DNA of 64,000 bases from contig CAJTIX010000003.1 of assembly GCA_910576795.1 (NCBI GenBank), positions 31,026 to 95,025 on the forward strand. The letters are read 5' to 3'. Under the pieces are notes generated by a model, which saw only the letters and a program-made list of their open reading frames with translations, ran no database searches and was not told the origin of the DNA. Both the position numbers and the translations under genes were made by a program. The stretch is from an uncultured Bacilli bacterium. GTDB lineage: Bacteria; Bacillota_I; Bacilli_A; RF39; UBA660. Positions 451-61,215 of the stretch are shown piece by piece; within the stretch, counting starts at the first letter, position 1, and each line of letters opens with the position of its first letter.

Positions 451-1290
451 TTAATCACCTCTATGATATTCCTGATATACCTCATTTTTGTGGATACCTC
501 TTTCGTGAGCAACTTGCTTAATTGCGTCCTTTACAGACATTCCTTCTTTCAAAAATAAATTTATGTGTTCAATTATTGTCAAGTTGTCGTGTGTTTCGCC
601 TTGAAAATTACCTTCTACAATTATAACAATTTCTCCCTTTATGTCAACCACTTGTCCGGAAATATTTTCTAGTGTTTCCCTATATATTTCTTCATATTTC
701 TTACTTATTTCCCGGGAAATTGAAACACGTCTATTTCCCAAAATTTGAAACATATCTTGAAGTGTTTTAGAAAGCCTATGAGGTGCTTCATAAAAAATTA
801 ATGTAGCCGCGATTTTTTTCAAACTTTCCAATTCTTTTCTTCTCTTGCTATCCTTACTATTTAAAAAACCATAAAATAGAAACGGATTTGGAGCAATTCC
901 AGAAGTGATTAAAGCAGGAATCAGGGCGGTAGGTCCTGGTAATCCGACAACATTATATCCATTTTGAATGGCAATTCGTGCAAGTTCATATCCTGGGTCA
1001 CTGATGACAGGAGTTCCTCGATCACTTACAATCCCTACCATTTTTCCTTGTTCTAAATAAGAAAGCAGTTTTGTTTCATTTTTAGCTTCGTTATATTGAT
1101 GAGAAGAGATCAATTTTTTTTCAATCTGATAATGTTTTAATAAAATAGAAGTCACTCTTGTATCTTCAGAAAATATGACATCTACACTTTTTAAAATATT
1201 CAAAGCACGTAAAGTGATATCTTCCATATTACCAATTGGAGTTGGGATCAAATAAACAGTTGGAGTTCCATCATAGCTCTTTTGTGACAT
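451..1290 (-). CDS. rsmI: 16S rRNA (cytidine1402-2'-O)-methyltransferase RsmI (tetrapyrrole-methylase fold, YabC)
   Basis: 279-aa ORF with the TP-methylase fold motifs. Synteny holB-yaaT-yabB-yabC as in Bacillus. Confidence 0.85.
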   Translation of the reverse strand: MSQKSYDGTPTVYLIPTPIGNMEDITLRALNILKSVDVIFSEDTRVTSILLKHYQIEKKLISSHQYNEAKNETKLLSYLEQGKMVGIVSDRGTPVISDPGYELARIAIQNGYNVVGLPGPTALIPALITSGIAPNPFLFYGFLNSKDSKRRKELESLKKIAATLIFYEAPHRLSKTLQDMFQILGNRRVSISREISKKYEEIYRETLENISGQVVDIKGEIVIIVEGNFQGETHDNLTIIEHINLFLKEGMSVKDAIKQVAHERGIHKNEVYQEYHRGD

Positions 1291-4880: not shown

Positions 4881-6530
4881 CTATTTTTCATATTCTATGA
4901 TATCTTCAAATATATTTTCTATTTCTGTCATTGATTCTTTTTGTTCTAATTGGTTTATAAGATCAACTGGTTCTTCTATATATTGATATTGTTTTGTTTT
5001 ACTATTAAATTCTTTTTTGATGACATCCCAATCTTCTTGATTGGTTGCAACCGCATATAATTTTTCATGATACATTTTTTCAAAAAAAGAATCGATTTGA
5101 AATAATTTTTCATTAAATAAATTAGACAGTCTACTATTTTCATAAACAAATATAAAATGGTCATGGCTAGCAGCTTTTAAAGTACCATCTAAGATGAAAG
5201 AAACCATTTTCCCATATTCGGGATTAGTTACTTCCAATTCTAACTGTTCTAATTTTTCTTTCCAATTTAGCATTTCCTTTTTGTTAAATTGACACAAAGT
5301 ATTATTGATCCTAATTTGTTTTAATTTTTCTATATTGTTATTTTTTTCAGGATTTTCACGGATTGACTTTTTTGAAATAATTGGTTCTTCTATTTTTGAC
5401 ACCTCTATTTCTTTCTTACTTATAGGCTCACTTATAGGAGATTCCACTTTTGTCTGATTTTCTTGTAAATGCATAATTTCAATCAATGCGGTTTCAAATA
5501 ATATTTTTGGATGATTGGACAATTTCATATCGTAAATAGTTTGATTAAACGTTTGGATTAATTCCAAAATTCTTTCTTTTGTAAGAGATTCAATATCATA
5601 TAACTCTGGATTACTAACAGTTTCTTTTAGGTAAGAAGGAACTGTATGTGCGAGTAAACAATTTCTTAAAAATAATATTATTTCTTCTGACAACTTTACA
5701 AAATTTTTTCCGTTTTGATCGTATGTATCAATCAAATGAAATAAATTTTCAATATCATTATTAGATAAAAAGGTGACAAAATCTTTTAATTGTACAGGTG
5801 TTAAGGTACCATTAATTTCATGTACATGTTCGATTGTAATACAATCTTCTGCATACGCAATTACTTGATCCATTAAACTAAGTGCATCTCTTAAACCACC
5901 ATCGGCTAGACGAGCAATTTCTATTAAACTATCATCATTTATGTTTATATTTTCCAATTTAGCAATTTCTTTTAAGCGATTATAGATATCTGTTTCATGT
6001 ATCTTTTTGAAATCAAATCTTTGACATCTAGAAAGAATTGTAGCTGGTATTTTATGTGGTTCTGTAGTTGCGAGTATAAATATAATATGTTCAGGGGGCT
6101 CTTCTAATGTTTTCAGAAGGGCATTAAAAGCACCAGTTGTTAACATATGTACCTCATCAATAATATAAACTTTATATTTACCAATAGAAGGAACTAGATT
6201 TACTTTGCTTTTTAACTCTCTAATTTCATCTACTCCATTGTTAGAAGCAGCATCTATTTCTATAATATCTACCGATTGTTTATTGTTTATTTGTGTACAA
6301 TTAACACATATATTACAAGGTTTTAAATCTTTAAGAGATTCACAATTAATCGTTTTAGCCAATATTTTAGCAACACTTGTTTTTCCAGTTCCTCTTGGTC
6401 CTGTAAATAAATAAGCATGACTTAACGTATTATTTTCTATTGCATTTTTAAGTGTTCTTATAATTATTTTTTGACCAACTACCTCATCAAAATAGGAAGG
6501 TCTATATTTTCTATATAAAGTTTGATACAT
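4881..6530 (-). CDS. dnaX: DNA polymerase III subunits gamma/tau
   Basis: 549 aa. Walker A GPRGTGKTS, zinc module CNICVNC and SRC motif (ILSRCQRF). Confidence 0.9.
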   Translation of the reverse strand: MYQTLYRKYRPSYFDEVVGQKIIIRTLKNAIENNTLSHAYLFTGPRGTGKTSVAKILAKTINCESLKDLKPCNICVNCTQINNKQSVDIIEIDAASNNGVDEIRELKSKVNLVPSIGKYKVYIIDEVHMLTTGAFNALLKTLEEPPEHIIFILATTEPHKIPATILSRCQRFDFKKIHETDIYNRLKEIAKLENININDDSLIEIARLADGGLRDALSLMDQVIAYAEDCITIEHVHEINGTLTPVQLKDFVTFLSNNDIENLFHLIDTYDQNGKNFVKLSEEIILFLRNCLLAHTVPSYLKETVSNPELYDIESLTKERILELIQTFNQTIYDMKLSNHPKILFETALIEIMHLQENQTKVESPISEPISKKEIEVSKIEEPIISKKSIRENPEKNNNIEKLKQIRINNTLCQFNKKEMLNWKEKLEQLELEVTNPEYGKMVSFILDGTLKAASHDHFIFVYENSRLSNLFNEKLFQIDSFFEKMYHEKLYAVATNQEDWDVIKKEFNSKTKQYQYIEEPVDLINQLEQKESMTEIENIFEDIIEYEK

Positions 6531-6606: not shown

Positions 6607-6622
6607 TGTTCCACGTGGAACA
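6607..6622. promoter_or_regulatory. parS: parS centromere-like site (TGTTCCACGTGGAACA)
   Basis: Perfect 16-bp palindrome. It differs from the Firmicute parS consensus TGTTNCACGTGAAACA only at the symmetric degenerate and partner positions. Confidence 0.75.
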
Positions 6623-6793
6623 TTGTATTAAATATTTATAAGATCAGCATATATTGAATTACAAGAATTGCTGCAAGCATATTTCTACTTTAAAGTGAAG
6701 GTATCAATGAAATCAAATTATAGGATAAATACAAATATATTTATGATTATAATCTAGCATAATATTTTTTTATTATATAAAGCAGTATTATAA

Positions 6794-6809
6794 TGTTTCA
6801 CGTGAAACA
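6794..6809. promoter_or_regulatory. parS: parS centromere-like site (TGTTTCACGTGAAACA)
   Basis: Exact match to the ParB/Spo0J parS consensus. Perfect palindrome located just upstream of the tadA stop in intergenic DNA. Confidence 0.8.
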
Positions 6810-6822
6810 TAAAAAAAAGAAA

Positions 6823-7263
6823 TTATTTTCTCTTATTTTTAAAAAATTGTTGTAATATTTTTTTTACTTTTTCAGAATATATGTCATTTGTATATTCCAC
6901 TTCTATTTTATTTTTGGTTTGAATATCATAGTTACTTTTCATATATCCGTAATTTGGATTAGAACAAGCATATATTATTTTTTTTATTCTAGATTGTATA
7001 ATAGCACCAGTACACATCATACAAGGTTCTAATGTAACATATAATGTACATTCTTCTAAGCGCCATGTTTTTAACTTTTTACATGCTTTTTGAATAGCAA
7101 GTATTTCTGCATGTTCAATAACATTATTATGTTTTTCTTTCTTATTATATGCTTTTGCAATTATTTTATCATTTTTTACGATCACTGCACCGACAGGTAC
7201 ATCATCTTTTTTATATGCTTTTTTTGCTTCATTAATCGCTACTTTCATCCACTCTTTTTTCAA
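6823..7263 (-). CDS. tadA: tRNA-specific adenosine deaminase
   Basis: CMP/dCMP deaminase zinc motifs HAE...PCMMC. Adjacent to ffs and dnaX as in Bacillus. Uses a TTG start at 7263 or an ATG at 7248. Confidence 0.85.
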   Translation of the reverse strand: MKKEWMKVAINEAKKAYKKDDVPVGAVIVKNDKIIAKAYNKKEKHNNVIEHAEILAIQKACKKLKTWRLEECTLYVTLEPCMMCTGAIIQSRIKKIIYACSNPNYGYMKSNYDIQTKNKIEVEYTNDIYSEKVKKILQQFFKNKRK

Positions 7264-7279
7264 TTTCTATCACCTAACT

Positions 7280-7362
7280 AAAAAAGCACACACATTTAGT
7301 GATCCTTAAGGCTGCTATTTTCCAATCCTGACCTGGTTCAAATATAAATGTTGTGCAATAAC
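7280..7362 (-). ncRNA. ffs: signal recognition particle RNA, small (4.5S) type
   Basis: Minus strand reads ...GCACAACAUUUAUAUUUGAACCAGGUCAGGAUUGGAAAAUAGCAGCCUUAAGGAUCACUAAAUGUGUGUGCUUUUUU. It carries the conserved SRP domain IV motif ACCAGGUCAGG...GGAA..AGCAGCC. A closing helix pairs GCACAACAUUUA with UAAAUGUGUGUGC (one bulge). A U-run follows, and a TTGATA / TATATA-like promoter lies upstream. Confidence 0.65.
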
Positions 7363-7400
7363 AATATATATTATTTTTAATAAAATATCAACTATTTAGA

Positions 7401-7416
7401 TGTTTCACGTGAAACA
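7401..7416. promoter_or_regulatory. parS: parS centromere-like site (TGTTTCACGTGAAACA)
   Basis: Exact consensus parS palindrome, placed immediately upstream of the putative ffs promoter. Confidence 0.8.
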
Positions 7417-7449
7417 TTACATTTTTAATAATTAGAATGTGATAAATAA

Positions 7450-7465
7450 TGTTCCACGTGGAACA
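7450..7465. promoter_or_regulatory. parS: parS centromere-like site (TGTTCCACGTGGAACA)
   Basis: Perfect palindrome variant, 34 bp from the previous site. Confidence 0.75.
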
Positions 7466-7692
7466 TTGCTCTATATTAATTATGAATTACAATATATTGA
7501 ATTAACACATTATATTAGACAAAATTATTGAAATAAAAGATTAGCAAAATTATTACATGACGAATTTTGTAAATTTTTAAGTAAGAATATATATATAAAA
7601 TTTATATTTTCCAATAAATATATAAGTTTGTAAATCAATTAACACAACACATCAAACTATTATTGATATAATCATAAATATTCAATCTTTTA

Positions 7693-7708
7693 TGTTTCAC
7701 GTGGAACA
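7693..7708. promoter_or_regulatory. parS: parS centromere-like site (TGTTTCACGTGGAACA)
   Basis: Hybrid of the two half-site variants. Sits 15 bp downstream of the gyrA stop. Confidence 0.7.
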
Positions 7709-7722
7709 TAAAAGAAGAACAA

Positions 7723-10164
7723 TTATGCTTGCTCTTCTTCCTCTATAATTTCTTCTTTCATCATGACAGCTACAGTACTAACTTTTTGATCATCCTTTAG
7801 ATTGATTAATTTTACTCCCTGAGCAACTCTACCCGTTGTAGAAACTTGCTCTAATGGTAAGCGAATAATAATTCCACTGTCTGTGATAATCATTAAATCT
7901 TCATCACCATGTACAGATTTGAACGAAACAATATTACCATTTTTATCTGTTACATTAAGTGCTTTTACACCTTTACTACCACGGTGTGTGATTCGATATT
8001 CTTCCATATCCGTACGTTTTCCATAACCTTTTTCTGTTACAACTAAAATTTGTTGTCCTTTTTCAGCAATTTCACAACCAACGCAAGAACCATCTCCTAC
8101 ATTAATTCCTTTTACACCGGCTGCTGTTCTTCCCATGATTCTAATTTCAGATTCATCAAAACGAATCATACGACCATTGGATGCTGCGATTAAGATTTCA
8201 TTTTCACCAGTTGTTTTTTTAACAGAAATCAATTGATCATCTTCTTTTAAAGTAATTGCTATTTTACCATTACTTCTAATATTATCAAATTCTCCTATAT
8301 TTGTACGTTTGATTAATCCTTTTTGTGTACAAAATACAATATATTTAGAAATTTCTTCTGTTGCTATTTTTAACATAACTGTTACATATTCATCTTTCTC
8401 AATTGGTAATAAATTAACAATTGGTAATCCCTTAGATTGACGATTGAATAATGGAATTTCATAACCCTTTAATCGATATACTTTTCCTCGATTGGTAAAG
8501 AATAATATATAATCATGTGTTGTCATAGAAATCAAATGTTGCGCGAAATCTTCTTCATTTGTTGCCATACCTTTTATCCCGACACCACCACGATTTTGAC
8601 TTTTATAGGTCTCACTATTTACACGTTTGATATATCCTTTGTTGGTTAATGTAATGACTACATTTTCAACAGGAATCAAAGATTCATCTTCAATATAGTC
8701 AATTGCAGACATATCAATTGATGTTCTTCTTTCATCACCATATTTTGATTTAATCTCTAAGGATTCTGTTTTAATGATTTCTAAAACACGTGACATATTT
8801 GCCAAGATATCTTTCAAATCGGCGATTGTAATTTCTAATTCTTTCAATTCTGATTCTGTCTTTTCTCTTTCTAAACCTGTTAATCTTCTCAATTTCATTT
8901 CTAGGATTGATTTTCCTTGAATTTCAGAAAGACCAAAACGATTCATTAATTGTTCTAAAGCTTCTTCATCTGTTTTTGATTTTTTGATCAATTGGACAAT
9001 CTCATCAATATGATCTAAAGCAATCATTAAACCTTCTAAAATATGAGCTCTAGCGAGGGCCTTATCTAAGTCAAATTGTGTACGTCTTACGATAACTTGC
9101 TTTTGATGTTCCAAATAACATTCTAAGATTGTTTTCAATGGTAGTATGCGTGGTTCATTATCAACAAGCGCTAAATTATTAATACCATATGTTGTTTGCA
9201 ATGAAGTATGTTTATATAAATTATTGAGTACTACATTGGCATTGGCATCTCTTCTAATTTCAATGACAATTTTAATTCCATCACGATTGGATTCATCTCT
9301 TAAATCTGTAATTCCATCGATTGTTTTATCTCTTACTAATTCCGCAATACGAGTTATTAGCATAGCTTTATTTACCATATATGGAATCTCTGTGACAATA
9401 ATTTGATGTTTTCCATTTGTCATTTCTTCAATAGAAGCCCTAGAACGAATTGTAATAATTCCTTTTCCAGTTTCGTAAGCTCTTCTAATACCACTATTTC
9501 CAAGAATCACAGCTCCTGTTGGAAAATCTGGTCCTTTGATATATTCCATTAACTCCATTGTGTCAATTTCTGGATTGTCAATTAATGCTACTAAACCATC
9601 TATTACTTCTCCTAAATTATGAGGAGGCATATTGGTTGCCATACCGACTGCAATTCCAGTGGTTCCATTGACTAATATATTTGGAAATCTGGAAGGTAAT
9701 ACACTTGGTTCTTTTTCTTCTGCTGTATAAGTAGGAACAAAATCAACCGTATTTTTGTTAATATCTCTAACAAGCTCCATACTAATTTTTGACATTCTTG
9801 CTTCTGTATAACGTTGTGCTGCAGCTCCATCGCCATCGATTGAACCAAAATTTCCATGCCCATCGACAAGCATATAGCGATAACTGAAATCTTGTGCCAT
9901 ACGTACCAGTGCATCATATATACTAGAATCTCCATGTGGATGGAAACGTCCCATAACATCTCCTGTAATACGAGCTGATTTTTTATGTGCTACATTGGCT
10001 GTCGCACCTAAATCATTCATTCCATATACAATTCTTCTTTGTACTGGTTTTAGTCCATCTCGGACATCTGGTAAAGCACGAGCAACAATAACACTCATCG
10101 CATAATCGATAAATGATTTTTTGATTTCTTTTTCAAAATGTAATTCTTTTAATATTCCAGCCAT
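7723..10164 (-). CDS. gyrA: DNA gyrase subunit A
   Basis: 813 aa with the active-site Tyr region ([10 protein letters not shown]), a QRDR-like segment and C-terminal beta-pinwheel repeats. Confidence 0.95.
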
Positions 10165-12103: not shown

Positions 12104-13216
12104 TTATTCCACCTCTTCTATTGTTTTTATTGTTCCTTGTACAATTTCAATTAATTTTGATTGTTTTCGAATAGTTTCATCAATATCTTTTAAATCTGTT
12201 GTTGTTATGATTGTTTGAAGATCTGATTTGATATAATGTAATAAGTTATTCTTTTTACCATCATCCAATTCACTAAATACATCATCCAATAATAAAATTG
12301 GATTTTCTTTTTTATAGGATTTAAATATTTGAATTTCAGCCAATTTCAAAGATAAAATTGCCATTCTTTGTTGTCCTTGTGAACCATAGCTTTTTAACTG
12401 CATATGATCTATATAAAAAGAAAAATCATCCCGATGAGGTCCAATTAAAGTTGTTTTGTAACGTAATTCCTTTTCTCTTACTGATTGAAAAAGGTTTTCT
12501 ATTTTTTCTTTTAATTTTTTTTCATCGGAGTCATATTCGACAAAAGATTGATATACTAAATGAAAATTTTCTAATGATGATATATTGAAAAAGATATAAC
12601 CAATATAAGAATTGATCTTATCTATAAATTTTTTTCGCATTTTCAATAATAAAATAGATTTATCAATTAAATAAGAAGTTAAAACTGAAAAATAATTTTC
12701 ATCAAATTGATTCCAATTTAACTTTATGTAATCATTACGCATTTTTAAAAGACGATTATAATCATTTAATATATTGTAATAATTAGAATTCAATTGACTC
12801 AGTTCTAAATTCAAAAATCTTCTTCTCATATTTGGAGATCCTTTAATCAATTCCAAATCATCAGGATAGAAGATAATAATATTCATTTTTGATAAATAGT
12901 CCCCTACTTTTTTCACAGGGTCTCCATCGATCTTGAGTTGTTTTTTTTTCTCTTCTAAATCAATTTCAAATTCAGTTGTAATTTCATCTATATATGCATT
13001 TCCAATTATTTTTGCTCTTGTATTATTTTCTTGAATTAAATTACTGTCAATAAAAGAGCGATGAGATTTGGTTAAAGCAAGTACATAGATGGCTTCTAAT
13101 AAATTGGTTTTTCCCTGCGCATTTTCCCCATAAATAATATTGATCCCTTTATGAAATGTTAATGAAAGTGTGTTATAATTTCTAAAATGATTTAATTGAA
13201 TATCCTTAATATACAT
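12104..13216 (-). CDS. recF: DNA replication and repair protein RecF
   Basis: 370 aa. Walker A GENAQGKT and an SMC-like signature motif. Start abuts the gyrB... order dnaN-X-recF-gyrB. Confidence 0.9.
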   Translation of the reverse strand: MYIKDIQLNHFRNYNTLSLTFHKGINIIYGENAQGKTNLLEAIYVLALTKSHRSFIDSNLIQENNTRAKIIGNAYIDEITTEFEIDLEEKKKQLKIDGDPVKKVGDYLSKMNIIIFYPDDLELIKGSPNMRRRFLNLELSQLNSNYYNILNDYNRLLKMRNDYIKLNWNQFDENYFSVLTSYLIDKSILLLKMRKKFIDKINSYIGYIFFNISSLENFHLVYQSFVEYDSDEKKLKEKIENLFQSVREKELRYKTTLIGPHRDDFSFYIDHMQLKSYGSQGQQRMAILSLKLAEIQIFKSYKKENPILLLDDVFSELDDGKKNNLLHYIKSDLQTIITTTDLKDIDETIRKQSKLIEIVQGTIKTIEEVE

Positions 13217-13310
13217 ATAACACCTTCTTTTTGCATTTTTATGGGCTATATTAAAACGTTATATGAAATTAATATACCTATACATATATATCATTATAGC
13301 ACAAATTAAA

Positions 13311-13343
13311 TTAAAAAATAAGCTTTTCTGCTTATTTTCTATA
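13311..13343 (-). terminator. rho-independent terminator after the ComK-like gene
   Basis: On the minus strand, AATAAGCagaaaaGCTTATT is followed by a TTTTTT run, directly 3' of the ORF stop. Confidence 0.5.
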
Positions 13344-13348
13344 AATTA

Positions 13349-13798
13349 TTATGATATTTTCCTACTACGTAAAACAGATTCTAATAAAGTAGATCTTAAA
13401 ATTTGATTTTCTAAAGATCCAGCTGATATATTGATTGGTAATTCATATCCATTTTTAAAAATAATTGTGGTTTTTCCTTTTTCTTTATTATATTTTAATA
13501 TTTTTTTGAGTGAAATCCAATAACAGTTATCAAATCTGGGTGAACTAGTTGGAAAAAAGATAATATCATTACTTTCTTCTATCACAATAGGAGCTTTATA
13601 GTTAATACCAATTAAATTTTTCGTTCCCTCATGTCTTCCTAAATAAGAACTTCCAAAAAATTTACAACTATTATCAATAATTTCGGTTGTTGTTTTATTC
13701 ACAGTTATAATATCTTCTTCTTCAATTACTTTAGAGACATTTTTAGAGATAGGGACAATGGCTAATGTTGAAGAATTGATCTCATAATTTTCGACCAC
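13349..13798 (-). CDS. comK: ComK-family protein (competence transcription factor family), short form
   Basis: 149 aa, GTG start with an AGGAGG RBS. From my recollection of the B. subtilis ComK sequence, blocks align as follows: YEINSSTLAIVP / YEVNGATIAVLP; IIDNSCKFFGSSYLGRHEGT / IVDRSCRFFGSSYAGRKAGT; KAPIVIEESNDIIFFPTSSPRFDNCYWIS / KPPIMVDPSNQIFLFPTLSSTRPQCGWIS; FKNGYELPINISAGSLENQILRS / FSNGKTMELPISYNSFENQVYRT. Confidence 0.55.
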   Translation of the reverse strand: MVENYEINSSTLAIVPISKNVSKVIEEEDIITVNKTTTEIIDNSCKFFGSSYLGRHEGTKNLIGINYKAPIVIEESNDIIFFPTSSPRFDNCYWISLKKILKYNKEKGKTTIIFKNGYELPINISAGSLENQILRSTLLESVLRSRKIS

Positions 13799-13948
13799 TT
13801 ATATTCCTCCTTTCAACTTTATAGACATTCTCCGGATAAACATCTATGCCGGGTACTATATACATTGTTCATGTCATATTTTGTTGAATTATGTCAGAAA
13901 ATTATGAAAATTGCATTTTTATGCAAAAAAATAGACCATTTAGGCCTA

Positions 13949-15070
13949 TTAATAAGTACGAATTGGTAAAATCAATTGCGTCAAATCATCACTTTCTGGA
14001 TTTTTGATAATGATTGGTTTAATTTCTCCATTCAATAATAATACAATTTCTTCACTCTCTAAAGATTTTAATGCATCAATCATATATTTTGAACTAAAGG
14101 CAATTTTAATTTCATGATCATTATCTTTTTCCACTTCAATCGTTTCTTCTACATTTCCAATTTCTGGAATATTGGAAGAAATGGTAATGATATTTCCATT
14201 ACTTTCTAATTTGATTGTATTTTTATCAGATTCATTCGTTAACAAAGAAGCACGATCGATTGCAGCATACAAATCATTTAATTTTACTTGAATGGTCAAT
14301 TCATATGTTTCTGGAATTAATTTCGAAGTATCTGGATATGTTCCATTTAATAAACGAGACATCATTACGATACTTTCAAATTTAAATATGACTTTATTAT
14401 TAAAAATATGTAATTCGATTTCTCCTTCCTCTTCATTGATTAATTTCATCAATTCATTTAAATTTCGAGTAGGAATCGTGATATTAATCTCTTCTTCCAA
14501 TGGAGACTCTAGTTCTACCCTTTTACTAGCTAGACGATAAGAATCTGTCGCAGTACATTCTAATATATTATTGGTGATCTTCATATTAATACCAGTTAAA
14601 ATTGGACGTGACTCTTGACTTGAAGTAGCAAATGCAGTTTGTCGAATGATATTTTTGAATACTTTTTTACTAATGACTACTGGTTTTTGATTTTCATTCA
14701 AATCTAAAGTTGGAAATTCGTCTGCGCGATTACAATTTAAATGAAAGGAAGAATTTGTAGTGGTAATTAAGATTTTCTGATCCACTACTTCTTCTATAGA
14801 TACAATTGTATTTGGTAATTTTTTAATAATATCATAAATAAAACGACCTGATACAACGATATCCCCTGTTTTATCAATATGTTCTATATCACTTGCAGGA
14901 ATAAATGTTTTAATAGCAATTTCATTATCTGTACTCATTAAATATAATCCATCAGTTTCAAGTTCAAATTTAATACAATTTAATACTGGTATTATATTTT
15001 TATTTGATATTCCTTTTATCACGTAATTTAAATGTTCGATTAATGTTTCTTGTTTGATTTCAAATTTCAT
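13949..15070 (-). CDS. dnaN: DNA polymerase III beta sliding clamp
   Basis: 373 aa with three-domain beta-clamp architecture. Immediately downstream of dnaA. Confidence 0.9.
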   Translation of the reverse strand: MKFEIKQETLIEHLNYVIKGISNKNIIPVLNCIKFELETDGLYLMSTDNEIAIKTFIPASDIEHIDKTGDIVVSGRFIYDIIKKLPNTIVSIEEVVDQKILITTTNSSFHLNCNRADEFPTLDLNENQKPVVISKKVFKNIIRQTAFATSSQESRPILTGINMKITNNILECTATDSYRLASKRVELESPLEEEINITIPTRNLNELMKLINEEEGEIELHIFNNKVIFKFESIVMMSRLLNGTYPDTSKLIPETYELTIQVKLNDLYAAIDRASLLTNESDKNTIKLESNGNIITISSNIPEIGNVEETIEVEKDNDHEIKIAFSSKYMIDALKSLESEEIVLLLNGEIKPIIIKNPESDDLTQLILPIRTY

Positions 15071-15216
15071 AAATAACTCCTATTCTATATTTTTTTTATA
15101 ATTATTTTTATTATGGAAGTGGAAATTGTGGAAAACTTCTATTTTCTTTGTATTTTCACATAAATATTCATTTTCTTCAATTGGAAAACAAGTGTATAAT
15201 TCCTATTTTTCCACTT
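15071..15216. other. dnaA-dnaN intergenic origin element (AT-rich unwinding region with degenerate DnaA boxes)
   Basis: Long A/T tract TATTTTTTTTATAATTATTTTTATTA. DnaA-box-like TGTGGAAAA at 15128-15136 and TTTTCCACT at 15208-15216. Resembles the B. subtilis incC/DUE arrangement. Confidence 0.45.
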
Positions 15217-16569
15217 TTATTTAATTTGTTCGATAATTTTATTGATTGAAAGTTCTAATTCTGGATTGGATTTAATCTGTGTTTTAATTTTATCTACAGA
15301 ATGCATAACAGTGGTATGATCTTTTCCACCAAATTCAATTCCAATTTTAGGAAGGGACTCTTCTAAAAAGGTCCTACATATGTACATAGCTACTTGTCTT
15401 GGAACCGCGATAGAAGCAGATCGCCTTTTACTTTTGAGTTCTTCTACCGTTATATTGTAATGATTTGCGACCAATTGTTGCACTTGATCTATTTTATTTT
15501 TTGATATGATACTTTTTACAAAATAATCTTTTAAAGCTTCAATTGCCAAATCTAAAGTGATATCACTACCGTTCATCATAGTCGCATAAGCAACCACTCT
15601 TGTAATGGCACCCTCTAATTTCCTAATATCACTCGTACAATTACTTGCAATATATTCTTTTACCTCTTGTGGAAAATTGCTCGCAAGCATATGCCCTTCT
15701 ATTTTATTATCAATAATATTCATTCTTAAATTAAAGTCTGGTTGAAGGATATTAATTGTAAGTCCCCAGTTAAATCGGGTTCTTAATCTGTCTTCCAATA
15801 ATTTTAAATCATCAGGAGACCGATCAGAAGAAATAATGATTTGTTTATTATTTCCATATAAGTCATTAAATGTATTAAAGAATTCTTGTTGTGTTTGATT
15901 GGCATTTCCAAGATATTGAATATCATCAATAATTAAGACGTCAATATTACGATATTTTCTTTTAAAGATCTCAACATTGTCAAAATTATTCCCATCTTTA
16001 TTTTTTTTATTAATGCCAATAAAATCTGATACGAATTTTTCACTGGTCACGTATAATACCGTTTTTTTACTATTTTTTATAATATAATTTCCAATCGCGT
16101 GCATTAAATGGGTTTTTCCCAGTCCACTATTTCCATATATAAATAATGGATTATACATATACCCTGGATTTTCCGCCACTGCTAGAGCCGTCGCTTGTGC
16201 AAATTTATTACTCTCTCCTACAATAAAATTATCGAATGTGTATAATGAATTCAAATTGGTTTCAAAATTTGTATTTGCAGGAACTCCAATTTCATCGGTG
16301 TTAATTTCTACATTAAAATCTACTTCTTCTTTTGTATAGTACTCAAATTTAAAATTCGTACCTGAAATTTCTGAAAAAAGATCTTGAATCATTTCATTAT
16401 AATTTTCTTTCAAGTTTTTTTTATGAATGTGCATCGGAACAATTACTTTCGCTGTATTGTCTTGTAATTCATGTAATTCCGTTTCCGAAAACCAAGTTTC
16501 ATAAGCAATGGGAGAAAGTTCTTCTTTCATTTTATCCAAAAAAGAGTTCCAAAGTTTTTTGGTATCCAA
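15217..16569 (-). CDS. dnaA: chromosomal replication initiator protein DnaA
   Basis: 450 aa. AAA+ Walker A GNSGLGKTH and a C-terminal DnaA-box-binding HTH. TTG start with a GGAGGTG RBS. Confidence 0.95.
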   Translation of the reverse strand: MDTKKLWNSFLDKMKEELSPIAYETWFSETELHELQDNTAKVIVPMHIHKKNLKENYNEMIQDLFSEISGTNFKFEYYTKEEVDFNVEINTDEIGVPANTNFETNLNSLYTFDNFIVGESNKFAQATALAVAENPGYMYNPLFIYGNSGLGKTHLMHAIGNYIIKNSKKTVLYVTSEKFVSDFIGINKKNKDGNNFDNVEIFKRKYRNIDVLIIDDIQYLGNANQTQQEFFNTFNDLYGNNKQIIISSDRSPDDLKLLEDRLRTRFNWGLTINILQPDFNLRMNIIDNKIEGHMLASNFPQEVKEYIASNCTSDIRKLEGAITRVVAYATMMNGSDITLDLAIEALKDYFVKSIISKNKIDQVQQLVANHYNITVEELKSKRRSASIAVPRQVAMYICRTFLEESLPKIGIEFGGKDHTTVMHSVDKIKTQIKSNPELELSINKIIEQIK

Positions 16570-16639
16570 ATCTTACACCTCCATCCCTGATTTGATACCT
16601 ATATTGTACATTATATTGATAGAAAATAAAAGAAAAATT

Positions 16640-16900
16640 GTCAAAAATTGTGGAAAAATAATAAATCACATAGTTATCCACATATAAAATAATTTAAATA
16701 TATGAAAGATTGCAGTTTATCCACTAAAATGTGGAAAATTTTATAAATAATATATGGCTAGGTGTATTTATTATTCACAATTTTGTGGAAAAAGTAAAAA
16801 ATAATGATAATTAAATAGAAATTGATGTGCATAATTGTGTGTAATATGGAATAAGGTAGAAATAGTGGATGTGGAAAATGTTTATAAGAAAAAAATGTTA
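16640..16900. other. oriC: oriC DnaA-box cluster
   Basis: DnaA boxes: TGTGGAAAA at 16649-16657; TTATCCACA (perfect) at 16674-16682; TTATCCACT at 16717-16725; TGTGGAAAA at 16730-16738, 16784-16792 and 16870-16878; plus overlapping AGTGGAT. Flanked by divergent dnaA and rpmH. Confidence 0.75.
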
Positions 16901-16908
16901 GAAAATAT

Positions 16909-16937
16909 TTGACAAATCAACCAAATGTATATATAAT
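16909..16937 (+). promoter_or_regulatory. sigma-A promoter of rpmH-rnpA operon
   Basis: TTGACA at 16909-16914, a 17-bp spacer and TATAAT at 16932-16937. An AGGAGGTG RBS lies before the ATG at 16981. Confidence 0.6.
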
Positions 16938-16980
16938 GTTAAAAGCAAAGCAAAAATTTTAGCACAGGAGGTGTATATAA

Positions 16981-17103
16981 ATGAAGAGAACTTATCAACC
17001 AAATAATCGAAAAAGAAGTAAAAAGCAAGGTTTCTTAGCTCGTATGAAAACGAATATTATCAATAATAGAAGAAGAAAAGGACGTAAAGTTTTATCACAT
17101 TAA
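16981..17103 (+). CDS. rpmH: 50S ribosomal protein L34
   Basis: 40-aa [43 protein letters not shown]. Too short for the ORF track but has a strong RBS and the canonical position before rnpA. Confidence 0.85.
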
Positions 17104-17108
17104 TAATC

Positions 17109-17136
17109 AACCACTGCGAAATAACAGTGGTTTTTT
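17109..17136 (+). terminator. rho-independent terminator / attenuator after rpmH
   Basis: Hairpin CCACTGcgaaataaCAGTGG followed by TTTTTT. Confidence 0.55.
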
Positions 17137-17155
17137 ATATAAGGAGTGTAATCCA

Positions 17156-17506
17156 ATGAAAAAAATAAATATTATTAAAGAAAACGAAACTTATAATAGA
17201 ATGATTCAAAAAATCAAACCATATAAATATAAAGATTACTTAATATATATAGAAAGAAATCAATCTCCAGTTTACCAATTTGGTTTCTCTGTTGGAAAAA
17301 AAGTGGGAAATGCCGTTACACGAAATAAAATAAAAAGGCAGTTAAAAAATATAATTGACCAAAAAAGCTATCAAAATCACTTTTATTGTATTATAATGGT
17401 AAGGAAGAGTATTTTAGAAAAACCATATAGCGAAATGGAAACAGATCTATTATATGCCTTTTCTAAATTAAATATTATAAAGGAGAATCCAGATGAAAAA
17501 AAATAA
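17156..17506 (+). CDS. rnpA: ribonuclease P protein component
   Basis: 116 aa basic protein with the RNR motif (KVGNAVTRNKIKRQLK). Conserved rpmH-rnpA-yidC order. Confidence 0.85.
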   Translation: MKKINIIKENETYNRMIQKIKPYKYKDYLIYIERNQSPVYQFGFSVGKKVGNAVTRNKIKRQLKNIIDQKSYQNHFYCIIMVRKSILEKPYSEMETDLLYAFSKLNIIKENPDEKK

Positions 17507-18443
17507 AATTTTAAAAGTACTTATTATTTTTGTATTAGTATTTAGCTTAACCGGATGTACTAAATATTTAAAACAAGATGGTAAAACAGTACGGAATGAA
17601 TCCACTGGTCAAAATTTAACTAAAAATATTTTATGTCAACCAGAAGGAGAAACTTTAAAATTATATGAAAAATATAATGAAGAAGTCGAAAAAGAGAATC
17701 AAGTTAAATTAGAAACTCTACCAAAATGCCAGAGTTTAAAAATCACAGAAGGAAAATATGAAGGAATTTGGACATCGATTTTCGTAAAACCACTTGCTTG
17801 GTTTATTATTCAAATTGGAAAATTGGTCAATAGTTATGGACTTGCTTTAATTTTAGCAACCATCATTATAAGAGCCGTTGTTTGGCCATTTACAAAAAAA
17901 ACAGCTTTACAATCTGAAAATTTAAAAAAAGCTCAACCAGAACTGAATAAAATCGAAGCAAAATATAAAAATCGTCAAGATCAAGAAGCAATGATGCAAA
18001 AATCTCAGGAAATGATGATGGTATATAAAAAATATAACATCAATCCATTATCTGGTTGTCTATTCTCATTTATTCAAATTCCACTTTTCTTCGCATTCTA
18101 TGAAGCAATCAGTAGGATTCCTGCAATTTTTGAAGAAACATTCTTAGGATTTCAATTAGGAACTAGCCCAGCTATTGCAGCTTTCCAACATGGGAAATAT
18201 TATTATTTAATCTTTATCGTTGTCATCGCATTAGCAACTTATTATTCATTCAAATTGAATAGTGGTGCTTCCATGGGAAAAGATCAAGAAAAACAAATGA
18301 AAACAATGACCAATGTCATGGTAGTCATCATGACAATTACGGCTTTCTCTATTTCTTCTGGAATTGCCATTTACTGGGTAACCTCAAATGTATTTACAAT
18401 TGTCCAAAACCTATTGGTAAAGCGAGGTAAAAAGAATGTTTAA
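17493..18443 (+). CDS. yidC: membrane protein insertase YidC/SpoIIIJ (lipoprotein)
   Basis: 316 aa. Lipobox LTGC after the signal peptide. 60-kDa inner-membrane-protein core with multiple TM segments. Confidence 0.85.
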   Translation: MKKNKILKVLIIFVLVFSLTGCTKYLKQDGKTVRNESTGQNLTKNILCQPEGETLKLYEKYNEEVEKENQVKLETLPKCQSLKITEGKYEGIWTSIFVKPLAWFIIQIGKLVNSYGLALILATIIIRAVVWPFTKKTALQSENLKKAQPELNKIEAKYKNRQDQEAMMQKSQEMMMVYKKYNINPLSGCLFSFIQIPLFFAFYEAISRIPAIFEETFLGFQLGTSPAIAAFQHGKYYYLIFIVVIALATYYSFKLNSGASMGKDQEKQMKTMTNVMVVIMTITAFSISSGIAIYWVTSNVFTIVQNLLVKRGKKNV

Positions 18444-19050
18444 TATCACAAAGTATGAAGCCAAAACCAAAGAGGAAGCATTAGAAAAATGTTTGAATGA
18501 ATTGAATTGTAGGCAAGAAGATTTATTCTTAAGGTCAGAATTTATAGAAGGAAAATTATTCAAAGGTTCAAAATATATTGTATATGCATTAAAAAAACAA
18601 GAAATATTGGATTTTATCAAAAATTATATTTATCAATTTGCAAAATTAATTCATATCGATATTGAATGTGAAATTTTACTACAAGGAGATACTTATCAAG
18701 TAACATTGGTATCAGATCAAAATGCAATTTTAATTGGAAAAGAAGGAAGAACATTGAATTCTCTTCAATTATTAATCAAACAAGCAATTAGAAAAGAAAC
18801 ACAATTGAATTTAAAATTAAACATTGATGCCTCTAATTATAAAGTGAAAAAATTAAAAGGCATTGAAAGACAAATTAAAATGATTGCGAAAGAAGTATTA
18901 GATAGTAAAATAGATGTTTCTTTAGACCCAATGAATTCATATGAAAGAAGACTTGTCCATTCCTTAATTGGAGAATATGAACATCTTACAACGGAAAGTA
19001 TTGGAGAAGGAAAAGAAAGACACATTATTATAAAATATGTAGAAGAGTAA
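18436..19050 (+). CDS. khpB: Jag/KhpB RNA-binding protein (KH + R3H domains)
   Basis: 204 aa with a C-terminal R3H motif (YERRLVHSLIGEYEHL). Conserved position after yidC. Confidence 0.75.
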   Translation: MFNITKYEAKTKEEALEKCLNELNCRQEDLFLRSEFIEGKLFKGSKYIVYALKKQEILDFIKNYIYQFAKLIHIDIECEILLQGDTYQVTLVSDQNAILIGKEGRTLNSLQLLIKQAIRKETQLNLKLNIDASNYKVKKLKGIERQIKMIAKEVLDSKIDVSLDPMNSYERRLVHSLIGEYEHLTTESIGEGKERHIIIKYVEE

Positions 19051-19129
19051 AAAAACTCTTTTTTGCATATGATAAATTAGATATAATGATTTGACTATTG
19101 AAAAATTATTTTGTAAACTTATATAGGAA

Positions 19130-19648
19130 ATGGGGAATATTGATATGTCATGCGATTACAAAGAAGAATATTATCAAATTGTAAAAGAAATATTAAGCCA
19201 CGAAGAATTTCAAAAGCGAAAAACATATAAACATCATGGTGATATTACTGTTTATGAGCATTCATTAAAAGTATCAAAACTGGCATATGTAATCGCACGC
19301 AGATTAAATAAAGATTATAAAAGTGCAGCCATTGGTGGCTTATTACATGATTTTTATGATAAACCATGGCAAGAAGATACAAGTAAAAAACCCTTTTTTC
19401 AAAAACATGGATTTGTCCATGCAAAACAAGCAATGATCAATGCAAATAAATATTTTCCAGAATTAATGAATGAGAAAATAAACAATATTATTGTAAGACA
19501 TATGTTTCCACTGAATAAAATTCCTCCAAAATACATAGAAAGTTGGATTGTATCATTTGCAGATAAATATGTTTCGTTCGAAGTATTTTTACAACCAACA
19601 AAATTACCATTGTTATTTGGTTTTCATAAAAAAGCAAAAGGAGAGTAG
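19130..19648 (+). CDS. HD-domain phosphohydrolase
   Basis: 172 aa. HD motif residues H...HD (GGLLHDFYDKPW) and a downstream His/Asp pair. Confidence 0.65.
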   Translation: MGNIDMSCDYKEEYYQIVKEILSHEEFQKRKTYKHHGDITVYEHSLKVSKLAYVIARRLNKDYKSAAIGGLLHDFYDKPWQEDTSKKPFFQKHGFVHAKQAMINANKYFPELMNEKINNIIVRHMFPLNKIPPKYIESWIVSFADKYVSFEVFLQPTKLPLLFGFHKKAKGE

Positions 19649-19649
19649 T

Positions 19650-21008
19650 ATGGAAGATACAATTGCCGCAATCGCAACCGCCTATGGAACAGGAGCAATA
19701 TCCATTATAAGAGTAAGTGGTGAAGATGCTATTTTAAAAGTAAATGCAATATTTAATGGAAAAGATTTAGAAAATGTAAGTACTCACACCATTCATTATG
19801 GTCATATTGTTGAAAATAATGAACTGATTGATGAAGTATTAGTTAGTGTTATGAAAAAACCAAAAACTTTTACAATGGAAGATGTGGTTGAAATCAATTG
19901 TCATGGCGGAATGGCAACTACAAAAAAAGTATTGGAATTATTATTAAAAAATGGAATTCGATTGGCAGAACCAGGAGAATTTACAAAAAGAGCATTTTTG
20001 AATGGTAGAATTGATCTATTAGAAGCAGAAAGCGTAATGGATGTCATATCTGCTAAAACAGAAAGTACTAGAAAAATCGCATTGAATCAATTAACAGGAA
20101 AGGTTTCTTCCTTGATTCATAACTTAAGAAAAAAAATAATAGAAATACTAGCAAATATAGAAGTAAATATTGATTATCCAGAATATGAAGATATTGAAGA
20201 AATGACAATTGAAATGATGAAACCAAGAATAGATGAAATAGAAAAGGAAATTAGAAATATCTTAAAAGAAAGTGAAAATGGAAAACTATTAAAAGAGGGA
20301 ATTAAAACATCTATAATAGGAAGACCAAATGTTGGAAAAAGTAGTTTATTAAATGCACTACTGGAAGAAGAAAAAGCAATTGTTACAGAAATCGAAGGAA
20401 CAACAAGAGATACAGTAGAAGGAAGTATCGTCATAGATGGAATTCTACTCAATATAATCGATACAGCTGGTATTAGAGCAACAGAGGATCTTGTTGAAAA
20501 AATCGGTGTAGAAAAAAGTAGAAAATTAATAGAAGAGTCTGAACTTATATTATATGTACTCAATCAAAATCAATCTCTGAATAAAGAGGATATCGAAATT
20601 ATCAATCAATTAAAACATAAAAATCATATATTGATTATAAATAAAACAGATTTACAATCCGTAATTGATGTAAGTTCATATGAAAAAGAACATCCTATAG
20701 TATATATGAGTACGCTTAAAAATGAAGGGATAGAAGAACTAAAAGAAAAAATCAAGGAAATTTTTCACTTGAATCAAATAGAAAACCAGGACTTTACTTA
20801 TTTAACGAATGCACGAAGTATTGCAATTCTAAAAAATGTATTGGAAAGTATTGAAGAAATAAAAAATGGGATTGAACAAAACCAACCCATTGATTTATTA
20901 GAAATTGATCTAAAAGAAGTATGGAATTTACTTGGTGAAATTATTGGTGAAACATATCAAGATGAATTAATTGATCAGTTATTTAGTCAATTTTGTCTTG
21001 GAAAATAA
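19650..21008 (+). CDS. mnmE: tRNA modification GTPase MnmE
   Basis: Begins MEDTIAAIATA (typical MnmE N-terminus). G domain GRPNVGKSSL and a C-terminal CLGK motif (FCLGK). Track ORF 19548 is an upstream in-frame extension; ATG at 19650 follows an AAAGGAG RBS. Confidence 0.9.
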   Translation: MEDTIAAIATAYGTGAISIIRVSGEDAILKVNAIFNGKDLENVSTHTIHYGHIVENNELIDEVLVSVMKKPKTFTMEDVVEINCHGGMATTKKVLELLLKNGIRLAEPGEFTKRAFLNGRIDLLEAESVMDVISAKTESTRKIALNQLTGKVSSLIHNLRKKIIEILANIEVNIDYPEYEDIEEMTIEMMKPRIDEIEKEIRNILKESENGKLLKEGIKTSIIGRPNVGKSSLLNALLEEEKAIVTEIEGTTRDTVEGSIVIDGILLNIIDTAGIRATEDLVEKIGVEKSRKLIEESELILYVLNQNQSLNKEDIEIINQLKHKNHILIINKTDLQSVIDVSSYEKEHPIVYMSTLKNEGIEELKEKIKEIFHLNQIENQDFTYLTNARSIAILKNVLESIEEIKNGIEQNQPIDLLEIDLKEVWNLLGEIIGETYQDELIDQLFSQFCLGK

Positions 21009-21069
21009 TAAAAAATTGACAAAATAAAAATATTATGTATAATAGAGAATCAATTAAGGGGGAATACAA

Positions 21070-21252
21070 ATGACCGATATGGAATTCAGAGAAAAACAGA
21101 AAGAGTTTATGGAAAAACAGAGTTTAAAAAATATATTGATTGGATTATATGGATTAGATAGAACAGTAGTAGAAAATTTAATAATAAATAGTAAATCCAA
21201 TCCAGAAGATTCAAATGAAGTAGAAGCTAAAATAGAAAAAGTAAAGAAATAA
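21070..21252 (+). CDS. small hypothetical protein (60 aa) inserted between mnmE and mnmG
   Basis: Strong RBS AAGGGGGA 7 nt before the ATG. Upstream promoter TTGACA (21015-21020) with 16 nt to a TG-TATAAT. Product is hydrophilic and Lys/Glu-rich. Confidence 0.45.
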   Translation: MTDMEFREKQKEFMEKQSLKNILIGLYGLDRTVVENLIINSKSNPEDSNEVEAKIEKVKK

Positions 21253-21366
21253 GAAAGCCTATAATGGTTTTTTTTATGCATTTCATTTGTTTTTAAATAT
21301 ATTTTATAACTTGTTTGATCTATTATTTAATAGTATAATAAAAAAAGCAAAAAAGAGGTGTTATGT

Positions 21367-24027: not shown

Positions 24028-25623
24028 ATGGAAATGGAAAAAGAGGTTCTTATTTTAAACTTGGATGATGTGCTACCAAACCGCTTTCAGCCAAGAATTA
24101 AATTCAATGAACAAAGTATATTAGAATTGGCAGATTCCATAAGAGAACATGGTGTTATCCAACCAATTGTTGTTCGAAAAATAGCGGATAAATATGAAAT
24201 TATAGCGGGAGAACGTAGATATAAAGCAAGTATTTTGGCAGGAAAAACAACTATTCCAGCGATTGTGACTAATTTGGATGATAAAAACAGTGCAGAAATT
24301 GCTTTAATTGAGAATGTTCAAAGACAAGATTTGACACCAATTGAAGAGGCAATTTCATACAAAAAAATATTAGACATGGGATATATCAATCAAGCTTCTT
24401 TGGCAGAAAAATTAGGAAAAACACAATCTACGATTGCGAATAAATTAAGATTATTGAATTTAGCGGATGAAGTGCAAGAAGCTTTATTGGAAGAAAAAAT
24501 TTCAGAAAGACATGCACGTTCATTGTTAAAATTGAATAAAGAAGATCAATTGAAAATGTTAGATCGTATTATGAATGAACGTATGACTGTAAGAAAAACG
24601 GATGAGGAAATTATGAAGATATTAAATGGTACAAATGAAGATAATGATTCGTCAGATGCACTGAAAATAGAACCACAAAAAGTGGAGACAATTAATCAAA
24701 ATCCAATCAAATCCAATCAACCATCATTGAATTCTAATATTTCTACCACATCTAATTTAGAAAATAATTTTATTCAAAATAATGCTACATCCGTTCCAAT
24801 ACAAGAAAAGGATAACATCATTAATCCAGGATTTATGGATGTAGAAAAAATAGAATCTCAAGCACAAGATATTTTTAAGCCAGTTGAATCTAATCCACCA
24901 GAAGAAGAACTTATTTTAGAGGTAAAACCAGAAGATAATGGAACAAAAATAGATATGAATTCTTCACAGCAACCATTCATAGAAGAACAAAAAATAATAG
25001 AACCAGAAGAACCCAAGCCATTTGTTGGAAAATTTTTTAACATGGTCAATTTAAATTCTGAGGAAAAGTCAAATCCAGATTATGTAAGTGACTTAGAAGA
25101 AAAGGAAATGAATATGGATTTTAATAAACCTGTGGAATCTCCGAAATCAGATTTTTCATTAGAAACATTTACGACAGAACCAGTTGTACAGTCAGGTGAA
25201 AATACTTCACAAGTAGAAATGAAAAAAGATGATTTAAATTCCAGTCAATTTATAACACAACCGAATTTTGGTAATCCAAATGCAATTCATACACCAATAA
25301 ATTCATCAGATATAGATGTTCTTCAATCAATTAATCCATATACTTTAAATGATGATTCTGAATTTTCAGGACCTATACATTCACAAGTAGAAATGTCAAA
25401 TCCATCTGGAAATTTAATAAATTCTAATATGAATAATGAAATTCAGCCAGTTATGATGAATAATGAGCAAGAAGAAACAATTCCAAATGTAGATATGAAA
25501 ACAGTAATTAATACCATTCGCGATTGCGTAAGCAAGGTAGAATCATATGGATATACTGTAGATGAAGAGGAAATGGATTTGGAAAATACTTATCAAGTAA
25601 CAATTACTATCAATAAACAGTAG
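24028..25623 (+). CDS. parB: ParB/Spo0J-family chromosome partitioning protein with long low-complexity insert
   Basis: N-terminal 190 aa is a ParB N-terminal (CTPase) domain with the GERRYKAS box plus an HTH. Residues ~195-480 are N/S/E/P/Q-rich low-complexity sequence with a repeated SQVEM motif. The last ~50 aa look like a dimerisation tail. Confidence 0.8.
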   Translation: MEMEKEVLILNLDDVLPNRFQPRIKFNEQSILELADSIREHGVIQPIVVRKIADKYEIIAGERRYKASILAGKTTIPAIVTNLDDKNSAEIALIENVQRQDLTPIEEAISYKKILDMGYINQASLAEKLGKTQSTIANKLRLLNLADEVQEALLEEKISERHARSLLKLNKEDQLKMLDRIMNERMTVRKTDEEIMKILNGTNEDNDSSDALKIEPQKVETINQNPIKSNQPSLNSNISTTSNLENNFIQNNATSVPIQEKDNIINPGFMDVEKIESQAQDIFKPVESNPPEEELILEVKPEDNGTKIDMNSSQQPFIEEQKIIEPEEPKPFVGKFFNMVNLNSEEKSNPDYVSDLEEKEMNMDFNKPVESPKSDFSLETFTTEPVVQSGENTSQVEMKKDDLNSSQFITQPNFGNPNAIHTPINSSDIDVLQSINPYTLNDDSEFSGPIHSQVEMSNPSGNLINSNMNNEIQPVMMNNEQEETIPNVDMKTVINTIRDCVSKVESYGYTVDEEEMDLENTYQVTITINKQ

Positions 25624-60498: not shown

Positions 60499-60510
60499 AT
60501 TTGTTCCCCC

Positions 60511-60951: not shown

Positions 60952-61215
60952 AAAAATTTCTCCCTTCAACCTATCCTATGGTTTTTTGACTATTTTGTAT
61001 AGGTATGTAACCATTTTTTGATATTTTTCTATGTTCGGACATTATTTTTCACGATTGAGACAGATTTTGAAAATTTGCATATAACATACTGTAAAATTTT
61101 GGAAAAAGGGGTTACAATAGTATAGAATAAGATGGACTTATTGATTAGAAGGTTCTTCTAATTTTACAATTGTTCACTAATTGTACACAGAATAGAATTA
61201 GGGGTTGTATGATGT

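Follow-up and report, generated by a model that had tools for sequence, protein, structure and literature searches.

The stretch of DNA analyzed here is a 64-kb window of the genome of an uncultured gut member of the Bacilli that is related to the Erysipelotrichales and has a G+C content of 29%. As seen from the listing of open reading frames (ORFs) and from Pfam and Rfam matches, its minus strand carries the genes recR, ybaB, dnaX, tadA, ffs, gyrA, gyrB, recF, a ComK-like gene, dnaN, and dnaA in this order. Within this gene order lie five 16-bp palindromes of the type known as parS, the recognition site of Spo0J-type ParB proteins. All five are intergenic: sites 5, 4, and 3 are located in the gap between gyrA and ffs, and sites 2 and 1 in the gap between tadA and dnaX (Table 1). 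The DnaA-box cluster upstream of dnaA and a switch in the sign of the GC skew at ~16 kb place these sites 9 to 10 kb from the replication origin oriC. The gene map, the intergenic placement, and the distance to oriC had been given in the same way by a first-pass annotation of this sequence and proved to be correct when checked against ORFs, Pfam, Rfam, GC skew, and DnaA boxes. Beyond the two ends of the window, a further 10 kb each was walked via identical proteins in the metagenome-assembled genome GCA_949959195.1 and an ENA assembly, which brings the DNA seen to ~84 kb of the genome. Our analysis indicates that the five palindromes are very probably true parS sites of the chromosome, which jointly make up a single compact centromere close to the origin. 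Their identity as parS is supported by their sequence, their position, their non-random occurrence, and their evolutionary conservation, all of which were computed here.

Results

Sequence and occurrence of the five palindromes

A pattern search without mismatches returned exactly five matches to TGTTNCACGTGNAACA in the window, and these are the same five sites that the first-pass annotation had proposed as parS. No sixth site was present at up to two mismatches anywhere in the 64 kb, and no further parS copy was found in the ~20 kb of DNA beyond the window, which bears out the earlier statement that the remainder of the window holds no further full copies. Relaxing the search to three mismatches added just four weak matches in the window. 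The number of sites expected by chance at up to two mismatches is 0.16 per window, and none of 100 dinucleotide-preserving shuffles reached five.

All five sites extend to the 18-bp palindrome ATGTTNCACGTGNAACAT. The flanks outside this 18-mer are mutually unrelated across the five copies, indicating that the sites are independent and not pieces of a longer repeat; a longer mobile repeat was rejected as an explanation on the same grounds. Four of the palindromes are perfect, two of them having the sequence TGTTTCACGTGAAACA and two the sequence TGTTCCACGTGGAACA, and the fifth, at 7693, is the T/G hybrid TGTTTCACGTGGAACA. The earlier count of three perfect palindromes was therefore too low by one. 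The strict Bacillus subtilis consensus TGTTNCACGTGAAACA is matched exactly on one strand by three of the five sites, and the two TTCC/GGAA sites show a single difference from it, at position 12. Expressed as a 16-bp inverted repeat, tGTTNCACGTGAAACa, the motif covers all five sites in its symmetric form and three of them in its strict B. subtilis form.

Table 1. Positions and properties of the parS sites and of other features of the 64-kb window
Feature	Position	Strand	Sequence or evidence	Context	Relatives
parS site 1	6607..6622		TGTTCCACGTGGAACA, perfect palindrome, C/G variant in both half-sites	tadA-dnaX gap, upstream of dnaX promoter/ribosome-binding site (RBS) block	Syntenic copy in L001 is TGTTTCACGTGAAACA
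parS site 2	6794..6809		TGTTTCACGTGAAACA, perfect consensus	13 bp downstream of tadA stop codon	L001 copy identical, syntenic
parS site 3	7401..7416		TGTTTCACGTGAAACA, perfect consensus	Ends 9 bp upstream of putative ffs −35 hexamer	Arrangement common to 17 related loci
parS site 4	7450..7465		TGTTCCACGTGGAACA	49 bp from site 3, start to start	Syntenic in L001, there 53 bp from neighbor
parS site 5	7693..7708		TGTTTCACGTGGAACA, hybrid; reverse complement is the strict B. subtilis consensus	15 bp downstream of gyrA stop codon	Syntenic in L001
Putative sigma-70-type ffs promoter	7363..7391	minus	TTGATA, 17-bp spacer, TATATT; 10/12 match, best in region		100% conserved in L001
ffs, small signal recognition particle (SRP; 4.5S-type) RNA gene	7269..7367	minus	Rfam RF00169, 59.5 bits vs gathering score of 40		97% identical to L001
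tadA (tRNA adenosine deaminase)	6823..7263	minus	Pfam PF14437 and PF00383	Between the two parS groups	
dnaX	4881-6530	minus			
gyrA	7723-10164	minus			
dnaA	15217-16569	minus			
DnaA-box cluster, taken as oriC	16649..16878		8 boxes at ≤1 mismatch	Upstream of dnaA	
Noc-type gene, sole ParB-family gene in window	24028..25623	plus	531 aa	Directly after rsmG	
Noc-binding site (NBS)	707..720		ATTTCCCGGGAAAT, perfect	Inside rsmI (451-1290, minus)	

Conservation of the sites in related genomes

For the comparison with relatives, we used a set of 80 loci centered on tadA homologues and comprising 1.26 Mb. The nearest species representative, L001, whose TadA protein is 77% identical, keeps all five sites one-to-one and in synteny. 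In a pairwise alignment of the window with L001, identity is 96% for the parS 18-mers, whose four differences are confined to the degenerate positions 5 and 12, compared to 61% (48% when gaps are counted) for the other intergenic DNA and 81% for the tadA coding sequence. A comparison of these intergenic regions among related genomes had been suggested by the first-pass annotation; it showed that the sites were kept in place while the neighboring DNA diverged. A second assembly of the same species, L082, contains the same five sites.

Exact parS sites are present in 51 of the 80 loci, and their copy number varies between one and five across species. Of the 103 sites found in the relatives, 69 are located within 1 kb of tadA, corresponding to 0.38 sites per kb in this region and 0.03 per kb elsewhere in the 1.26 Mb. 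Palindromes scattered at a similar density everywhere would have pointed to a generic repeat, as the first-pass annotation had noted; no such distribution was seen in the ~84 kb of the genome, and in the relatives the sites are 12-fold denser near tadA. The conservation spans the full 16-bp parS consensus, beyond the CACGTG core, and the changes seen from species to species at positions 5 and 12 do not preserve complementarity. Judged from these alignments, the parS array is under purifying selection and forms a clear phylogenetic footprint, which argues against explanations based on chance, relics, or generic repeats.

In some relatives the sites are part of tandem repeats. Locus L016 has five parS sites upstream of ffs in units of ~51 bp (9620-9840), and four parS sites upstream of ffs in 105-bp tandem units are found in L029 (9520-9850) and L030 (17-344). 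The presence of parS within such repeats shows that the array grows by local duplication. Both tandem spacings are near whole helical turns.

A parS site next to the putative ffs promoter

Site 3 is located directly upstream of the putative ffs promoter and 33 bp from the 5′ end of ffs. To locate ffs in the relatives, a local nhmmer search was performed with eight Rfam-confirmed ffs sequences, and 58 loci proved to have the gene upstream of tadA. Among these are 17, including loci of distant Erysipelotrichaceae such as Solobacterium and Galactobacillus, in which the edge of a parS site lies 25 to 48 bp, mostly 33 to 38 bp, from the 5′ end of ffs. When aligned on parS, the window and 12 of the 17 loci share the same arrangement, which consists of parS, 8 to 12 bp, a TTGAYA-like −35 hexamer, a TATATT/TATAAT-like −10 hexamer, and ffs. 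The earlier observation that one site abuts the ffs promoter was thus correct, and this proximity is kept in at least 17 other species. As parS is lacking from the 1 kb upstream of ffs in 28 of the 58 loci, the link between parS and ffs is common, not obligatory. Promoter-like matches in the region were not more common than in shuffled sequences, and a literature search on parS together with ffs found nothing relevant.

In Streptococcus pneumoniae and Pseudomonas aeruginosa, ParB bound to parS alters nearby transcription. The location of parS 8 to 12 bp upstream of the ffs −35 hexamer might couple the loading of ParB clamps to transcription of the SRP RNA gene, a possibility that we regard as rather unlikely, though more likely than the dual-specificity reading of Noc described below. 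The same transcriptional effects, the fixed position relative to ffs in the window and its relatives, and the location of site 1 just upstream of a conserved dnaX promoter/RBS block would also fit a more far-reaching alternative, in which the main task of the palindromes is to control the transcription of ffs, tadA, and dnaX as operators, with ParB as a local regulator or with an unrelated protein binding the CACGTG core, and in which a centromere role is secondary or absent. However, it is the full 16-bp consensus that is kept and not the CACGTG core alone, and two of the sites follow the stop codons of gyrA and tadA, where no promoter is expected. Furthermore, a copy number varying from one to five and the tandem expansions fit a loading array better than a tuned operator, and the 28 ffs loci lacking parS in the 1 kb upstream also speak against operators. 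A primary function as operators is therefore considered very unlikely.

The ParB-family protein of the window and its predicted binding site

The sole ParB-family gene of the window directly follows rsmG, which is the position of noc also in B. subtilis. In searches against solved structures, its product matched Noc best (7NG0/7NFU, 208 bits), compared to 152 bits for Spo0J of B. subtilis. With the NCBIfam model TIGR04285 a score of 285.7 bits was obtained, which is below the cut-off of 315 because the match was split in two by a linker of ~280 aa. Jalal et al. (PMC7383237) assigned specificity for parS to the residues R173, T179, A184, and G201 and specificity for NBS to Q, K, K, and R at these positions; in their screen, parS-specific variants always contained R173, and one lysine at position 179 or 184 permitted NBS binding. 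The window protein has the combination Q-K-N-R, with the NBS-type residues Q173, K179, and R201 present, and the same combination was found in all 120 homologues retrieved.

In 22 related loci, the perfect NBS 14-mer found inside rsmI recurs at the syntenic position. The 14-mer encodes I-S-R-E-I with the rare codons TCC and CGG, the latter accounting for only 7 of the 394 Arg codons of the window genes, and looks like a selected site embedded in a coding sequence. A general enrichment of NBS was not observed, as the window contains four matches at up to three mismatches and 4.2 are expected by chance; only the exact site at 707-720 is considered meaningful, because it is conserved. Taken together, the Q-K-N-R residues and the intact, conserved Noc/NBS pair make it very unlikely that the window protein is the parS reader; it is of the Noc type and predicted to read NBS. 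The first-pass annotation had remarked that none of the sites lies inside parB. This is true and yet beside the point, as the gene in the window is of the Noc type and not predicted to read parS.

The window protein is composed of ParB_N and helix-turn-helix (HTH) domains (residues 1 to 200), the low-complexity linker, and a Noc-like C-terminal domain. A feature of Noc is an N-terminal amphipathic helix of 10 residues that targets the protein to the membrane (PMC8429893). This helix is lacking in the window protein, whose alignment begins at chain residue 26 of 7NFU, and in each of the 120 homologues the NRFQPR motif starts near residue 17. Midway along the linker, a motif G(K/R)FFNM(F/V/I)N is kept in 19 of 20 sampled homologues, and the rest of the linker is variable. 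Similar sequences are SFFDRFAG, with which the canonical 267-aa Noc from L061 begins near its N terminus, and the N terminus of B. subtilis Noc; on the basis of this resemblance, the linker motif may represent a relocated membrane-targeting sequence. The family of Noc proteins with a long linker comprises at least 120 clusters with lengths of 490 to 655 aa, all from uncultured Bacilli.

Search for the cognate ParB

Several observations weigh against the interpretation of the array as the centromere of this chromosome. Binding and spreading of ParB and loading of condensin at the array are deduced from analogy, and other parS loci, perhaps more important ones, may exist in the genome, of which ~84 kb was seen. 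The variant with C/G in both half-sites, which is present in two of the five window sites, is rare in the relatives (2 of 103 sites). Neither a second ParB paralogue nor Soj was detected in the window by six-frame motif searches and tblastn, which across the window and all loci returned only the Noc-type gene, and no ParA or ParB was found within 10 kb past either window end. The gene directly following noc, which is the ancestral slot of soj-spo0J, is uvrB (25740-27719). A profile search for the host's own ParB with four Spo0J-type proteins returned 120 near-identical variants from one abundant species, and querying with the 121-aa Soj fragment of L089 yielded nothing but truncated pieces.

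We also inspected the gene context of five other genomes encoding a long Noc. In L089, soj is located ~10 kb downstream of noc, after ftsH and at the edge of the locus, and no soj was found nearby in L090 and L172. An ftsH gene next to soj was sought in L091 to L094 and not found, from which it follows that these loci are not syntenic with L089. In L171, a ParA/ParB_N pair was considered as a chromosomal system and rejected, as it belongs to an inserted element with sortase and single-stranded DNA-binding protein (SSB) genes that splits uvrB. This element (12230-21500) carries HTH, ParA, ParB_N, sortase/SpaA, and SSB genes and looks integrative or conjugative. In the Erysipelotrichaceae loci L055 and L061, rsmG is followed by noc and then by soj, and Noc has the same QKNR residues. 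The closest relatives of Soj in metagenomes are encoded by soj genes followed by a gene for a 294-aa Spo0J with the sequence GKSRSH...SMGHAR, corresponding to the parS-type residues R173/G201 in Caulobacter numbering. Because the sites are under strong selection and relatives possess soj-spo0J, we infer from the sequences that the cognate ParB is encoded elsewhere in the genome.

Alternatively, the lineage could have lost soj-spo0J and the long-linker Noc-type protein could read both NBS and parS, so that the array would be a Noc or a hybrid loading site and one protein would perform centromere binding and nucleoid occlusion. Such a dual specificity would be in line with the fact that no ParB-family gene other than the Noc-type one is present in the 84 kb and that the usual slot after noc is without soj-spo0J. 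The protein is also atypical in its length, in the lack of the N-terminal membrane helix, and in its score below the TIGR04285 cut-off, and laboratory engineering can yield ParB variants of dual specificity (PMC7383237). However, these variants mostly have T or S at position 201 and the parS-specific ones always R173 (PMC7383237), whereas Q173 and R201 are invariant in the 120 homologues. Moreover, the protein already has a cognate perfect NBS, which is kept in 22 loci and encoded with rare codons, and the Erysipelotrichaceae with the same QKNR Noc retain soj. We therefore consider a dual-specificity Noc very unlikely.

Hairpins, repeats, and relics

A reading of the sites as palindromes that no protein binds, be they generic repeats, RNA hairpins or terminators, or products of chance, is highly improbable. 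Each site is able to fold into a hairpin of 7 to 9 bp, stop codons closely precede sites 2 and 5, and a simple scan gave one weak terminator-like match (7447-7468, plus strand), which covers site 4. However, on the minus strand, which is the transcribed one, no T-tract accompanies any of the five sites, and a role as terminator or hairpin was rejected because the lone weak match lies on the strand that is not transcribed. In addition, the flanks of the five copies are unrelated, there are no copies elsewhere in the 84 kb, and far less than one site is expected by chance. A protein half-site accounts for the hybrid site 5, and also for the differences at positions 5 and 12 seen when the window is compared with L001, better than an RNA stem does.

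Functionless relics of a recently lost ParB, which would agree with the lack of ParB and Soj in the ~84 kb examined, are just as improbable, since neutral relics would decay at the rate of their flanks, whereas all five sites are perfect in two species in which the surrounding intergenic DNA is ~61% identical, and the same conservation is seen in many more distant relatives.

Other features of the window

A second group of DnaA-box-like sequences is located inside the mnmG coding region (21663-21769), ~5 kb from oriC; it consists of four boxes at up to one mismatch in 107 bp, one of them exact. The ComK-family gene (13349-13798, minus strand; PF06338, E = 1.4e-45) lies between dnaN and recF within the classical dnaA-dnaN-recF-gyrB-gyrA block, and a ComK gene adjoins dnaN also in the distant relative L089. 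Sporulation-related genes were found at 36412-36945, 42743-43657, and 59932-60969, encoding SpoIIR, SpoIID, and CotJB with a CotJC-like Mn catalase, and the locus L082 of the same species has matches to BofA (PF07441, weak) and SpoVT_C. The presence of these genes suggests that the lineage forms spores or descends from spore-formers.

Discussion

The results are best explained by a parS array that would function as follows. Dimers of a Spo0J-type ParB would recognize each 16-bp site, bind cytidine triphosphate (CTP), close into sliding clamps, and spread over the neighboring few kilobases, that is, over gyrA, ffs, tadA, and dnaX. The clamps would build a single partition complex that marks the origin region for segregation and is the loading point for the structural maintenance of chromosomes (SMC) condensin. 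With five sites in 1.1 kb, the array would behave as one nucleation zone, providing redundancy and a higher loading rate, and the copy number of the sites would shift by local duplication. The reader would be a ParB encoded elsewhere, and the Noc-type paralogue of the window would keep its own NBS.

In B. subtilis, about ten parS sites are spread over hundreds of kilobases, and one of them lies inside spo0J. The array described here shares with this system the identical 16-bp recognition sequence and its symmetric variants, the location near the origin, and the coexistence of a Noc paralogue with a separate NBS; loading of ParB-CTP clamps, spreading, and recruitment of SMC are expected by analogy. 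It differs from it in that five sites are confined to 1.1 kb of intergenic DNA and in that soj-spo0J does not adjoin noc. The first-pass annotation had used the contrast with B. subtilis to imply that the array is unusual, which was overstated, as bacteria normally have tight parS clusters close to the origin. A scattered layout is confined to a small number of lineages, among them the Bacilli (PMC8357415). The array is tighter than the published range and occurs in a Bacilli lineage, yet it is an element of the expected kind.

Corynebacterium glutamicum has ten parS sites clustered in 35 kb at a distance of 73 kb from oriC, which load ParB and direct the chromosome arms' SMC-dependent alignment; one of the ten sites suffices, and the others add robustness (PMC7083940). 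Both species have redundant, B. subtilis-like 16-bp parS sites that are nearly all intergenic in C. glutamicum and form one cluster near oriC (PMC7083940), with the difference that the five sites reported here are confined to 1.1 kb and lie 9 to 10 kb from oriC. In C. glutamicum the function was demonstrated, whereas for the present array it is deduced from such parallels.

The parS cluster of Caulobacter crescentus adjoins the parAB operon, whereas the array in the window flanks ffs and tadA and has no par genes nearby. At least five clustered parS sites near ori nucleate the spreading of ParB over ~10 kb in this organism, and additional sites are best tolerated adjacent to the cluster already there (PMC5815017). 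This tolerance explains the local growth of clusters and fits the local tandem expansions observed in the relatives. Plasmid centromeres such as sopC of F consist of tandemly iterated binding sites, and the relatives L016 and L029/L030 share with them a tandem architecture, in which dense, regularly spaced repeats of one site would serve a single partition complex. The window array, in contrast, is chromosomal, has the chromosomal parS consensus, and shows irregular spacing and unrelated flanks.

The array would place the chromosome centromere in an uncultured low-GC lineage of gut Bacilli related to the Erysipelotrichales. A tight origin-proximal parS cluster is in itself what current knowledge predicts for most bacteria. 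Specific to this lineage are the anchoring of the predicted centromere at the ffs/tadA intergenic regions and not beside par genes, the conserved register of one site with the putative ffs promoter, the variable copy number, which is sometimes brought about by tandem repeats, and the absence of soj-spo0J from the usual slot. The lineage and its relatives thus offer a clean natural series for asking how the copy number and spacing of parS affect the loading of ParB and SMC, and the same series bears on the question of whether transcription is affected when a centromere site abuts a strong RNA-gene promoter.

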